A stretch of 64,000 nt of DNA from Plasmodiophora brassicae (taxonomy: Eukaryota), in the NCBI GenBank assembly GCA_036867785.1, contig CP145422.1:372001-436000 (forward strand), given 5' to 3'. Every line of letters starts with the position of its first letter. The first letter of the stretch is position 1. Both the position numbers and the translations under genes were made by a program. The notes beneath the pieces are model-generated. The model did no database searches. It saw only the letters and a list, made by a program, of their open reading frames with translations, and had not been told where the DNA came from. Shown piece after piece: positions 13,819-30,959 of the stretch.

Positions 13819-16143
13819 ATGGCGACATCGTCGTCGTCGGCACCGCTGTCGCCCTCCTCGTCATCATGGCTCAACGAGTGTGTCGATGATCTAATGCGGG
13901 TCGTCGCCTTCTTTCGTGAAACCCTACGCGTCGACATGGACCAAACTTGGCTGTATGGCCAAGCGCTACTGGTTTTGCCCGCTGATCGGCGGTCCGAACA
14001 GCACGCCAACATGCTAATTCAGATGTACAACGACCGACTGCGGGCCGCTGCCGATATACCTGCCTTGCCACCGCAGTACCGTCGTGGTGACCTGGCAGCC
14101 GCTGCGTCCGACACCGCCGCCCACGAGTATAACAAGTTGAGGCCGTCCATGCAGCGCAATAAGTTCCCATTGGCGTCCCTGTCTCGGGCATATTCCCTTT
14201 CGCAATTTGGCGTCGTCTCAGACTATGCGCTGCAGCAGCTGGTTCCCAACTTCAACCGTGACGCGTATGGGAGCATCGCCTGGCAGAACGAGGTCTCAGG
14301 AGACGGCGACACAATGATGGCGTTGCTGCCAGAAGAAGACTGGTTCCCATCGCGCATGGTCAAGCGGTCGCTCGACGTCAACAACGGTGGTGATATCATC
14401 AAGAATCAGTACGTCCGGTACTGTCGGGAGGTCGCCATCGGTGTCGTCGTCGAGTTTCAGCAATCAACCCTGAGCGGCGAGCGCCAAGAGCTGCAGTTCC
14501 ACTGCCGCTTATGGGACCGGCTCCTTAACGCATTGCTGCGTCCGCTGACCAAACCGCTGTTGACGTCGGTGTTGGAGCTGTCTATGGCCGGCGTGATTGA
14601 GGGGTATTCCCCGCCGTTCGCTGACTACGCGTGCATGCTGGCTCCAGATAACAACGATGAGGATCGTGTTGCCAGAGCACGGCAGCTGCCTCTGCTTCTG
14701 GTCGAGGTATCGGCGCACGCCGTCGGGAACGAAGAAGATCATAAGGATTTCCGCAAATTGCTCGTCATGATGGCGGTGACGCTGCTTGCACGCATCGGTT
14801 CTGTTCGACGTCGTCCTGTCGGCGAACGGAGCAGCTTGCGCCAGTTCGGGTTGCTTGTCGGCGCGTTCCAATTCCAGCCAGTTGTCATGATTCCGATTTT
14901 TGATAACGACCACGATGCGGGCCGTGTGTCGTTCGTTGCTCGCTGCGACCCGACCTGGCGATCGTTCGTACGGACGCCTTCGCATGAAGCAGTGCAGCTC
15001 CAGGGTGTCTACAGCGACATTGAGGCGCCGCAGTCGTTGGACCGCGACAATGAGGCGTTCCTCACGGAGTTGGCGCATCGCGTCGCATCGGCCGCCGCTG
15101 CAGTCGCTCGCACAAGACCCCCTCCTGATCCGGCGCCGCAACAAGCCGACGTCCTGAACCGGCTCCGCTCATTGTCCTCCTTTTGCGACGCCGTGCGTCG
15201 TCAGGCCAGTGTCTACCACGCGATGCTGTCGCATGGCGACGTCGAGGACGTGTTTCCGTACCCGACATCGTTTGGCCCCCCACCGTCATCGCGGCCATCC
15301 ACGGCGAAGTGGCCGCATTCGCAGCGGACGCCGTCGAGGAAATCAGGGAGTCCGCGCACGAGTTCTTCTGGTCGTCCACCGCGCAAACGCGGACGCTCCG
15401 ACGGACCAAGTCGTACTCGCCAAGCTGCGTCTGTCGCACTGGTCGATGACCTCGCCGTCAAACACAAGATGGGCAGCGCCGCCGAAGAGCCCGCGCTCAT
15501 GCGGGACTCGCAGGGCGACGGCGTCGCACGCCTGTTCGGGTCCATCGCCTTGCCGCGCAGCAACGGCGGCGGCGTTGTTCTTATTGAAGAGCGCCTCGAC
15601 GACGTCGATTTCGGGCAGTTGTCAGTTAACGACATCGGCTTGGTGCTTGTGCGCTTCTTTATCGACGGCTTGGCCGCACTCGGCACGTTATCTCGCGCCG
15701 GCATTGTCCACCGCGACATTAACCCGAACAACATCATGTACAGCGTCGCCGTGCAAGGTTGGCGGGTGACCGATTTCGATCTGGCGTGTCGTGTGGACGA
15801 CCCGCAGACGGGCGTGGAGCTGCGACCCGGTGCCGGTACCCAAGGGTACATCGCGCCGGAAGCGCTGGACGCCGGCGTCTATTCGGCGTCCTCCGACATG
15901 TGGAGCCTGGGTCGCACAGCGGCGTATTTCCTGTCCTGTGCTCAGGACGAGGTGTGGAGGCGCCCCGACGTTCCCCACAAGTTCGACGACGTTCTTTGCC
16001 ACCTGGAGATGATAGCGCACAACATGTCGGCACCGGAGCCCGCCCAACGCATCGTATCGCCGAGCGTCCACGAATTCCTGGTCGACTTGCACAATGAGTT
16101 CCAGCAGAATGCTGCGGACAACGGCTTCATTGCCCGGCGATGA
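13819..16143 (+). CDS. 774-aa putative nuclease-fold + protein kinase (Crinkler/FunK1-like), copy 1
   Basis: Kinase motifs LAVK, HRDINPNNIM, DFD, GTQGYIAPE, DMWSLG. Central ADY...LLLVEVS...HKDFRKL. NLS PPRKRGR. Intronless. Confidence 0.85.
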   Translation: MATSSSSAPLSPSSSSWLNECVDDLMRVVAFFRETLRVDMDQTWLYGQALLVLPADRRSEQHANMLIQMYNDRLRAAADIPALPPQYRRGDLAAAASDTAAHEYNKLRPSMQRNKFPLASLSRAYSLSQFGVVSDYALQQLVPNFNRDAYGSIAWQNEVSGDGDTMMALLPEEDWFPSRMVKRSLDVNNGGDIIKNQYVRYCREVAIGVVVEFQQSTLSGERQELQFHCRLWDRLLNALLRPLTKPLLTSVLELSMAGVIEGYSPPFADYACMLAPDNNDEDRVARARQLPLLLVEVSAHAVGNEEDHKDFRKLLVMMAVTLLARIGSVRRRPVGERSSLRQFGLLVGAFQFQPVVMIPIFDNDHDAGRVSFVARCDPTWRSFVRTPSHEAVQLQGVYSDIEAPQSLDRDNEAFLTELAHRVASAAAAVARTRPPPDPAPQQADVLNRLRSLSSFCDAVRRQASVYHAMLSHGDVEDVFPYPTSFGPPPSSRPSTAKWPHSQRTPSRKSGSPRTSSSGRPPRKRGRSDGPSRTRQAASVALVDDLAVKHKMGSAAEEPALMRDSQGDGVARLFGSIALPRSNGGGVVLIEERLDDVDFGQLSVNDIGLVLVRFFIDGLAALGTLSRAGIVHRDINPNNIMYSVAVQGWRVTDFDLACRVDDPQTGVELRPGAGTQGYIAPEALDAGVYSASSDMWSLGRTAAYFLSCAQDEVWRRPDVPHKFDDVLCHLEMIAHNMSAPEPAQRIVSPSVHEFLVDLHNEFQQNAADNGFIARR

Positions 16144-30959: not shown

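Follow-up and report, generated by a model that had tools for sequence, protein, structure and literature searches.

A tandem array of genes for a predicted restriction endonuclease-fold domain and an atypical protein kinase in Plasmodiophora brassicae

Among the C-terminal modules of the toxins known as Crinklers, the combination of a restriction endonuclease (REase)-fold domain with a kinase accounts for about one sixth, the REase domain being held responsible for toxicity and the kinase for regulation (PMC5289972); in reviews, this kinase is proposed to autophosphorylate or to phosphorylate chromatin or repair proteins. One such protein, CRN8 of Phytophthora infestans, is described as an active, dimeric RD (Arg-Asp) kinase that depends on its nuclear localization signal (NLS) and has 10 paralogs at 97–99% identity (PMC3426532), and its nuclease-like part is named REase4 in another report (PMC11064341). 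Reviews link Crinkler modules composed of a nucleoside triphosphatase (NTPase) and a REase domain with transposable elements (PMC5289972), and report Crinkler-related proteins, with functions unknown, in the clubroot parasite P. brassicae (PMC5772912, PMC7415369). Here, we describe a tandem array of five genes from a 64,000-nucleotide stretch of the P. brassicae genome (GenBank assembly GCA_036867785.1, contig CP145422.1, positions 372,001–436,000 of the forward strand; hereinafter the window, to which all positions below refer). In their products, a predicted PD-(D/E)xK (REase)-fold domain is combined with a eukaryotic protein kinase (ePK) domain of atypical make-up. We read the array as a recently amplified, transcribed set of genes derived from biological conflict or from a selfish element and acting in the parasite's own multinucleate cells, and regard this reading as about evenly balanced between right and wrong; its main rival is that of an effector delivered to the host plant.

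The likeness to CRN8 (REase4 with a D2 kinase) lies in a REase-fold domain followed by an RD-type Ser/Thr kinase and accompanied by a basic NLS motif; to this is added a likeness to the CRN8-type Crinklers in the recent expansion of paralogs at 97–99% identity in a transposon-rich setting. A first-pass annotation of the window, made from the sequence alone, had accordingly spoken of a Crinkler-like architecture. The shared REase-kinase module bears this out, but none of the N-terminal features that define Crinklers was found: Pfam gave no Crinkler header, returning only kinase families at E≤1 for the whole protein and no family at E≤0.1 for residues 1–194; pattern searches of the protein gave neither an LFLAK-type motif (LxL[FY]LA[KR] and L[FY]LA) nor an HVLV or HV[LIV][LIV]xxP junction motif; and a crude hydropathy scan gave no signal-peptide-like start, in which the 9-residue means did not rise above about 0 within the first 20 residues and peaked at 1.78 at residue 45. 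Unlike the modular header of Crinklers, the N-terminal 220 residues of the array protein are conserved across its family and are predicted, at low confidence, to be helical (residues 1–223 all helices, with a predicted local distance difference test [pLDDT] score <50 in the full-length AlphaFold2 [AF2] model). Since the header, LFLAK, HVLV, and a signal-peptide-like start were not found, we would class the array gene as having the architecture of a Crinkler toxin without being a Crinkler, the likeness to CRN8 being one of architecture and not of sequence comparison.

The first-pass annotation had further proposed a PD-(D/E)xK fold for the central region, and structure prediction agrees with it. 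The AF2 model of residues 190–410, built on an 18-sequence alignment, has a mean pLDDT of 81.7 and a predicted template modeling score of 0.77, and begins with two helices, followed by three strands, a long helix, and three more strands, within which a helix (224–240), three strands (248–255, 267–274, and 293–298), a second helix (309–328), and a further strand (342–348) provide the α-β-β-β-α-β core of the REase fold. We compared this model with 48,161 chains in a structural search independent of Foldseek. Among the best 50 matches listed, 39 aligned the N-terminal helical hairpin alone (≤58 residues), and the 11 that aligned more than 100 residues comprised eight nucleases or REase-fold proteins, two mitoribosomal chains, and one DinG. 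The best non-helical match among those listed was the restriction enzyme BpuSI (3s1s; Z 10.3, root-mean-square deviation [rmsd] 3.3 over 134 aligned residues), together with DrdV (7lo5; Z 9.4–10.2, rmsd 3.1 over 126), HsdR (3h1t; Z 8.3, rmsd 3.0 over 108), 3ijm (Z 8.0–8.2), 9y1l (Z 6.8), SduA (Z 6.7), EcoRI (Z 6.0), and a DUF820 nuclease (Z 6.0). A second structural search returned the same matches along with TT1808, Cas4 SSO0001, NucC, BsaXI, SgrAI, Hjc, and AddAB, as well as the hantavirus cap-snatching endonuclease and the nuclease-like domains of CidB. The longest alignments among the matches listed (174–189 residues, Z 9.0–10.3) were to chains '5' and 's' of human mitoribosome entries, which we take to be mL37 and mS30/mL65; these REase-fold chains, at an rmsd of ~4.7–5.3 Å and 5–11% identity, are structural ribosomal proteins with no nuclease function. 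A profile search of PDB sequences with the family alignment returned kinases only, and a homodimer prediction for the central domain (scores 0.00 and 0.00) speaks neither for nor against dimerization.

A multiple alignment shows that the central domain retains the residues expected at the acidic positions of such a fold across considerable divergence. In 15 sequences at 20–32% identity, E224, E253, D269, P291, E296, H308, K309, D310, K313, and G344 are invariant, and all are unchanged in the 15 P. brassicae members, except for E253, which is D or E. When placed on the model, E224 lies at the start of the first core helix, E253 in strand 1, D269 in strand 2, and E296 in strand 3, and the HKDxxK motif opens the helix that follows strand 3. 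The strand-2 Asp and the strand-3 Glu are conserved in common with the N-terminal nuclease domains of BpuSI, DrdV, and HsdR, which superpose on the array domain at an rmsd of ~3.0–3.3 over 108–134 residues. The array protein differs from these type IIG/IIL and type I enzymes in its eukaryotic context, in an identity of just 10–13% to the array domain, and in being devoid of their methyltransferase, helicase, and target-recognition modules.

The C-terminal domain is recognizable as a kinase by several routes. Pfam Pkinase (PF00069) is matched at 67.5 bits (cut-off 31.7; E 1.6e-18) over positions 108–243 of its 263, PDB sequence matches (CaMK1 and others) fall on the same C-lobe stretch, and Foldseek with the full-length model gives E ~5e-9 to FGFR2, EphA4, and CK2 over ~245–260 columns. 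In this model, whose mean pLDDT is 59.8, the kinase is confident at residues 545–770; its N-lobe is reduced to three strands (545–551, 572–578, and 585–591) and one short helix. The catalytic residues can be assigned as K548, E556/E557, HRD at 631–633, N638, DFD at 652–654, and APE at 679–681, of which K548, E556/557, HRD, N638, and D652 are unchanged in all P. brassicae members. D654 replaces the Gly of DFG, so that the array kinase differs from that of CRN8 in having DFD instead of DFG and in having no Gly-rich loop, atypical traits on which Pfam, model, and sequence concur with the first-pass annotation. That annotation had also likened the DFD-type motif to the FunK1 kinases. A match to PF17667 (FunK1/Pkinase_fungal) does exist, in 5 of the 18 family members, but is weak: at 28 bits (cut-off 24.1; E 1.1e-6) it covers positions 288–371 of 387, which amount to the generic catalytic loop, leaves the N-terminal two thirds of the FunK1 model unmatched, and falls far below generic Pkinase. 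Kinase activity seems plausible from the conserved residues, though not assured.

The five genes lie on the plus strand as ATG-initiated open reading frames (ORFs) of 774 amino acids each, with start-to-start distances of 3704, 3704, 3704, and 3704 bp (ORF listing and repeat search) and no internal stop in any of the five translations, much as first annotated (Table 1). The motifs singled out in that annotation start at the same residue in all five copies (FADYA at 267, LLLVEVS at 292, HKDFRKL at 308, PPRKRGR at 520, HRDINPNN at 631, and VTDFD at 650), and a tblastn search with the protein found no sixth or degenerate copy in the 64-kb window. The repeated DNA is wider than was first thought (about 12789–31178, by blastn of one unit), ending upstream in a partial, diverged spacer (12789–13134; 94.6% identity to the unit) and downstream in a 218-bp spacer stub (30961–31178; 96.8%). 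No Pfam match or transposable element-like feature was seen in the spacer, nor any Pfam match in the antisense ORFs of unit and spacer, which are taken to be by-products of a G+C content of ~60%. Because the 1379-bp spacers that follow copies 1–4 are 0–1 nt apart, we consider the amplification to be recent, as had been proposed.

The copies themselves differ in a structured manner. Between copies 1 and 4 there are 21 substitutions, which all lie in nt 95–1341 and change eight amino acids; 10 of the 21 fall inside a 22-nt patch that reads WLYGQALL in copy 1 and SLNLYAIA in copy 4 (residues 44–51). Copies 4 and 5 encode an identical protein and differ at 2 nt, whereas copy 3 is set apart from copy 2 by a single nucleotide of the coding sequence (CDS; G584S). 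Copies 2/3 differ from copies 4/5 by two compensating 3-nt indels and nine substitutions, all within nt 1341–1765; relative to copies 4/5, copy 2 has an additional Arg at codon 449 and the changes W498R, S506A, and R507K, and the proline run at residues 486–488 is PPP in copies 1/4/5 and PP in copies 2/3. The differences among copies 1–4 are thus confined to the CDS, in two tracts (nt 95–1341 and nt 1341–1765), between spacers that are nearly invariant. Such clustering suggests conversion tracts from diverged paralogs elsewhere rather than point mutation in place. On these patterns, we read the array as young and internally homogenized, with older edges: it would have grown by unequal crossing-over, with the interior kept homogeneous and the edge sequences left 3–5% diverged.

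Transcription of the array was examined in sequencing runs; of the 24 listed, 19 contain 50% or more of the words sampled from copy 2. We aligned four runs to positions 27256–37000, of which three (X2, X5, and X7) come from three studies. These contain RNA, because they show seven joints of 49–78 nt with CT..AC ends between 33953 and 36059, which correspond to spliced introns of a minus-strand transcript. In each, a single long contig runs over copy 5 (28819–30635 in X2, 28787–30704 in X5, and 28779–30937 in X7), and these contigs are collinear with the genome, with 0 gaps and no intron over 28779–30937, a span for which the gene is intronless as first described. Contig depth is 77–147 over the CDS and 0–3 in mid-spacer (27581–28230); since DNA would give no such contrast between CDS and spacer, their copy numbers being equal, the gene is transcribed in runs of all three studies. 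The contigs cover the first ~325 nt and the last ~400 nt of the spacer and hardly its middle, which points to likely untranslated regions, ~325 nt long on the 3′ side and some hundreds of nt long on the 5′ side, though contigs as such give neither expression levels nor transcript ends. In all three runs, a loose contig end at 28225 continues as window positions 12759–12788, and so represents a copy-1-type upstream region that is without the 616-bp insertion found in the window (see below). The sole run recorded as RNA, X20, contributed one 201-nt contig, too little to use.

The array protein is 97% identical to a database entry named 'Protein kinase domain-containing protein [Plasmodiophora brassicae]', and its 90%-identity cluster holds 15 P. 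brassicae members that are 95–99% identical to copy 1. Four distinct members of this cluster lie on the window's own 1,127,679-bp contig, and another, annotated assembly has five different member sequences on a single contig of 1,389,561 bp, so that the multi-copy state first annotated recurs elsewhere; more are found on contigs of 1,544,657 bp and 741,057 bp, and in one annotated assembly, members at ≥95% identity are spread over three contigs or more. These data bear on the notion that a repeat was artificially over-expanded in assembly and that the true locus has one or two copies, which might be suspected from the identity of the spacers and from an older short-read reference in which the gene survives only in pieces of 734 aa, 479 aa (partial), and 306 aa, the last on a 2043-bp contig. 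We hold this to be very improbable: the copies comprise four distinct protein sequences in a fixed order, the other assembly has its five different members on one contig, RNA contigs of two runs join the end of the CDS to the canonical start of the spacer, and fragments are the outcome expected when a short-read assembly collapses a true array.

Beyond P. brassicae, the family was detected by exhaustive HMMER search and not by word-indexed ones, which, whether with the whole protein, region 195–400, or a profile, recovered the P. brassicae cluster and generic kinases only. Run with residues 1–500 against 1.84 billion representatives, HMMER retrieved 17 proteins (E≤1e-3), including a 586-aa P. 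brassicae paralog (35% identity) and one protein of the chytrid Entophlyctis helioformis, the remainder being metagenome or run-assembly proteins; 5 of the 17 also match Pfam Pkinase, and several others lie on contigs too short to tell. Language-model (Atlas) searches offered, as a lead only, unnamed Mucoromycota families as the closest clusters (score 0.91), with PDDEXK_12 (0.80) and DUF6826/Pkinase_fungal (0.78) as sub-threshold leads; the search for named clusters gave generic kinases. We regard the genes as members of a family patchily distributed in eukaryotes, in which a PD-(D/E)xK domain is fused to an atypical ePK. A full-text search of the literature found no paper on PBRA_001920, PBRA_003919, or PBRA_009728, and nothing relevant on the kinome or protein kinases of P. 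brassicae among the papers listed.

Variation among the 15 P. brassicae members, amounting to 72 variable columns, is unevenly distributed: per 100 aa, there are 15.3 variable sites in the linker, 14.2 in the N-terminal region, 10.2 in the middle region, 6.9 in the kinase, and 4.0 in the REase-like domain. A patch at residues 28–52 stands out, with 13 of its 25 positions variable and ≤4 residues per site. The nuclease-like domain is thus the most constrained part of the protein and one N-terminal helix the most plastic. At the same time, the N-terminal region is conserved with the chytrid and metagenome homologs, a stretch of the SRAYSLSQFGVV type recurring in the alignment with the chytrid protein.

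It is here that the case for a host-translocated effector of the Crinkler type has to be weighed. Such a protein would be exported by a non-classical route, enter plant nuclei by means of PPRKRGR, and damage or reprogram host DNA or chromatin, with the variation at residues 28–52 reflecting escape from host recognition. In favor are that hypervariable patch; the sharing of the REase, RD-kinase, and NLS module with CRN8, which is described as active in host nuclei (PMC3426532, PMC5289972); a recent amplification like the CRN8 expansion (PMC3426532); and the Crinkler-related proteins that reviews state for P. brassicae (PMC5772912, PMC7415369). Transcripts also occur in runs whose coded organism labels differ from each other, which does not establish expression in planta. 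Against it stand the lack of a signal-peptide-like start in the hydropathy scan, the lack of a Crinkler header, LFLAK, or HVLV motif, and an N-terminal region which, being conserved with chytrid and metagenome homologs, is not a swapped-in delivery module. We take this explanation seriously while giving it clearly less than an even chance. Our leaning toward action within the parasite stems from the same two observations, namely that no secretion signal was seen and that the whole N-terminal architecture is shared with the chytrid and metagenome homologs.

The array sits in a transposon-rich pocket among otherwise ordinary genes of the window (a TCP-1 chaperonin, a UCH peptidase, an LCAT-like lipase, and a TLDc protein), and the transposon linkage that the first-pass annotation noted for Crinkler-type effectors is matched by three elements at its edges (Table 1). 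Downstream lies a Ty3/gypsy-type retrotransposon with identical 117-bp long terminal repeats (LTRs; TG..CA) and an open 1698-aa ORF with reverse transcriptase (RT), RNase H, integrase, and chromodomain; it is apparently intact and very young, and inspection of its ends revealed no matching target-site duplication. The spliced minus-strand transcript introduced above is carried by RNA contigs from all three runs, each of a different study, and spans 33796–36631, where it lies antisense to that half of this ORF which encodes integrase and chromodomain; its seven introns of 49–78 nt are GT..AG on the minus strand, and its spliced form has no ORF >158 aa, so that it looks non-coding and may be a silencing-related RNA. 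Upstream, beyond an RT fragment, the spacer ahead of copy 1 is interrupted by the 616-bp insertion, which is bounded by perfect 9-bp terminal inverted repeats (TATAGATCT), flanked by an 8-bp target-site duplication (GTTCTCGG), and present only once in the window. Isolates probably differ in its presence, because it is missing from the equivalent site of units 2–5 and from the RNA contigs of three runs. Near the end of the window, at 62646–62869, there is a tandem repeat with a period of 45/88 bp (2.5–5 copies, 78–80% matches), with 67% G+C and long ORFs overlapping on both strands.

Table 1. Features of the array and its flanks in the window (aa, amino acids of the encoded protein).
Feature	Residues (aa)	Position	Strand	Basis or remark
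Repeated-DNA block		12789..31178	+	~4.8 units of 3704 bp; blastn of one unit against the window and repeat families at 3704-bp spacing
Copy 1 CDS		13819..16143	+	774 aa; most divergent copy
Copy 2 CDS		17523..19847	+	774 aa
Copy 3 CDS		21227..23551	+	774 aa
Copy 4 CDS		24931..27255	+	774 aa
Copy 5 CDS		28635..30959	+	774 aa; covered by RNA contigs of three runs
Inter-copy spacer		16144..17522	+	1379 bp; recurs after copies 1–4
Hypervariable N-terminal patch	28–52	13900..13974 (copy 1; +3704 per copy)	+	comparison of 15 members
Predicted PD-(D/E)xK (REase)-fold domain	219–395	14473..15003 (copy 1; +3704 per copy)	+	AF2 model, structural matches, invariant columns
Conserved long helix between nuclease-like domain and linker	441–470	15139..15228 (copy 1)	+	pLDDT 83–90, full-length model
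Disordered Ser/Arg/Pro-rich linker	484–542	15268..15444 (copy 1)	+	pLDDT <50
NLS-like PPRKRGR	520–526	15376..15396 (copy 1)	+	motif position
Atypical ePK domain	543–770	15445..16128 (copy 1)	+	Pfam PF00069, PDB kinases, model, sequence
RT fragment upstream of array		10567..11328	-	RVT_1, E 9.7e-20
Insertion in spacer upstream of copy 1		13135..13750	.	616 bp; non-autonomous DNA-transposon-like
Ty3/gypsy-type LTR retrotransposon		31203..36870	+	starts 24 bp past the last repeated base

With transposable elements at both edges of the array, the gene could itself belong to a mobile element or be its cargo, the nuclease serving the movement or maintenance of the element and the array being a by-product of its activity. 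The members at ≥95% identity on several contigs of one assembly would fit this, as would the homolog clusters elsewhere, with their 8–20 near-identical members on short contigs. The REase-kinase module is reportedly given a transposon origin as well by Zhang et al. 2016. For the NTPase-REase modules of Crinklers, the linkage with transposable elements is stated in a review (PMC5289972). Opposed to this, however, are the features of the array: the 3704-bp unit has no terminal repeats, target-site duplications, or transposase, RT, or integrase ORF of its own; the head-to-tail copies at an exact period are as expected from unequal crossing-over and not from transposition; the array edges match no recognizable element terminus; and two metagenome scans for homolog loci (70 and 65 pattern matches) had 0 confirmed. 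On balance, we find this explanation improbable.

In the mechanism that we favor, for an array acting within the parasite, the basic linker with its PPRKRGR motif would carry the protein into a nucleus, where a metal site formed by D269 and E296, with K309 or K313 from the following helix replacing the classical Lys, would cut or nick DNA. The kinase would regulate this nuclease, phosphorylating either itself or proteins of chromatin or DNA repair, and the variable N-terminal helix would determine the specificity of partner choice or recognition. Of the nuclear-acting conflict gene proposed in the first-pass annotation, the recent amplification stands, with transcription now added to it, but the nuclear action and the role as effector, toxin, or selfish element are, like the nuclease activity, what we infer for the array protein. 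None of the three findings that the annotation had named as refuting it turned up.

A number of points weigh against this interpretation, and we gather them here. With regard to the fold, Foldseek against the PDB gave nothing significant for the central domain (best E 0.022; REase rows at E 0.17–0.4); the model was built on a shallow alignment of 18 sequences; no model for the domain was found in Pfam (0 of the 18 family members), NCBIfam, or PADLOC; and, as VIA Z scores of 7–8 are common for unmatched models, a Z of ~10 is only modestly above this level. Taken alone, such a Z would be moderate evidence, and the uniformity of the matches together with the motif pattern strengthens the case for a REase fold. 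With regard to catalysis, the position two residues after E296, the third of the motif, is Ser, Ala, or Gly in the family rather than the classical Lys of (D/E)xK seen in BpuSI, DrdV, and HsdR, with HKDxxK invariant on the next helix instead; K309 or K313 of that helix may substitute for it. Moreover, a REase fold is no proof of activity, as the mitoribosomal chains at Z 9–10 are non-catalytic. As for the kinase, there is no GxGxxG in its N-lobe, the sole match being at 671 within the activation segment, and the strand-3 Lys (K548, with E556/557) is present in the nearest homologs (P0004, P0008, and P0019), with a Tyr at the aligned position in more distant ones. Because the Gly-rich loop is lacking and the Lys is not conserved in distant homologs, the array kinase may be a weak kinase or a pseudokinase. 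Finally, the nuclear action would follow solely from the seven-residue PPRKRGR motif, the cell or nucleus of action is one that we infer, and the neighboring transposable elements may be coincidental.

Some of these points would also fit an ordinary signaling kinase of the parasite, in which the REase fold has no catalytic role and serves as a scaffold or for binding nucleic acid, with the tandem array simply raising the dosage. REase folds are reused non-enzymatically, as in the mitoribosomal chains, and the canonical motif Lys is missing; likewise, the depth of 77–147, collapsed from five copies and set against 5–32 for neighboring genes, is roughly neighbor-like per copy, although contig depth cannot rank genes. 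The conservation pattern speaks against it: the four acidic residues and H308, K309, D310, and K313 are invariant at 20–32% identity, which favors a preserved active site over a scaffold. In addition, the family is patchy and lineage-expanded, not a conserved ortholog, and its N-terminal patch is hypervariable. We therefore consider the signaling role unlikely, and return to the reading of a conflict- or selfish-element-derived array that acts within the parasite.

The combination of REase and kinase domains has already been described for Crinkler-type toxins, of which the array gene is a further case with no delivery domain; a nuclease-kinase toxin module can thus exist without the delivery domain of Crinklers. 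In its most far-reaching and, in our estimate, improbable form, the array would represent a relative of the Crinkler nuclease-kinase toxins that has neither header nor leader, is engaged in an arms race at residues 28–52, and serves either as a DNA-damaging factor in host nuclei or as a nuclear toxin of the killer or allorecognition type between nuclei or strains. In the former case, there would be an unknown route into nuclei and a contribution to the changes in cell cycle and endoreduplication of clubroot galls; in the latter, action between nuclei or strains in the multinucleate plasmodia of the parasite. In either case, the Pfam-less REase domain would constitute a new eukaryote-wide nuclease family, so far in Rhizaria, chytrids, and possibly Mucoromycota. 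Few clubroot effectors have been characterized in detail, and the locus provides an expressed multi-copy candidate with two predicted catalytic centers and a defined hypervariable patch. As the array is fragmented in the older reference assembly, its copy number may serve as a marker of strain variation. With public annotation going only as far as 'protein kinase domain-containing', a family model for the central domain would improve annotation in several eukaryotic lineages.

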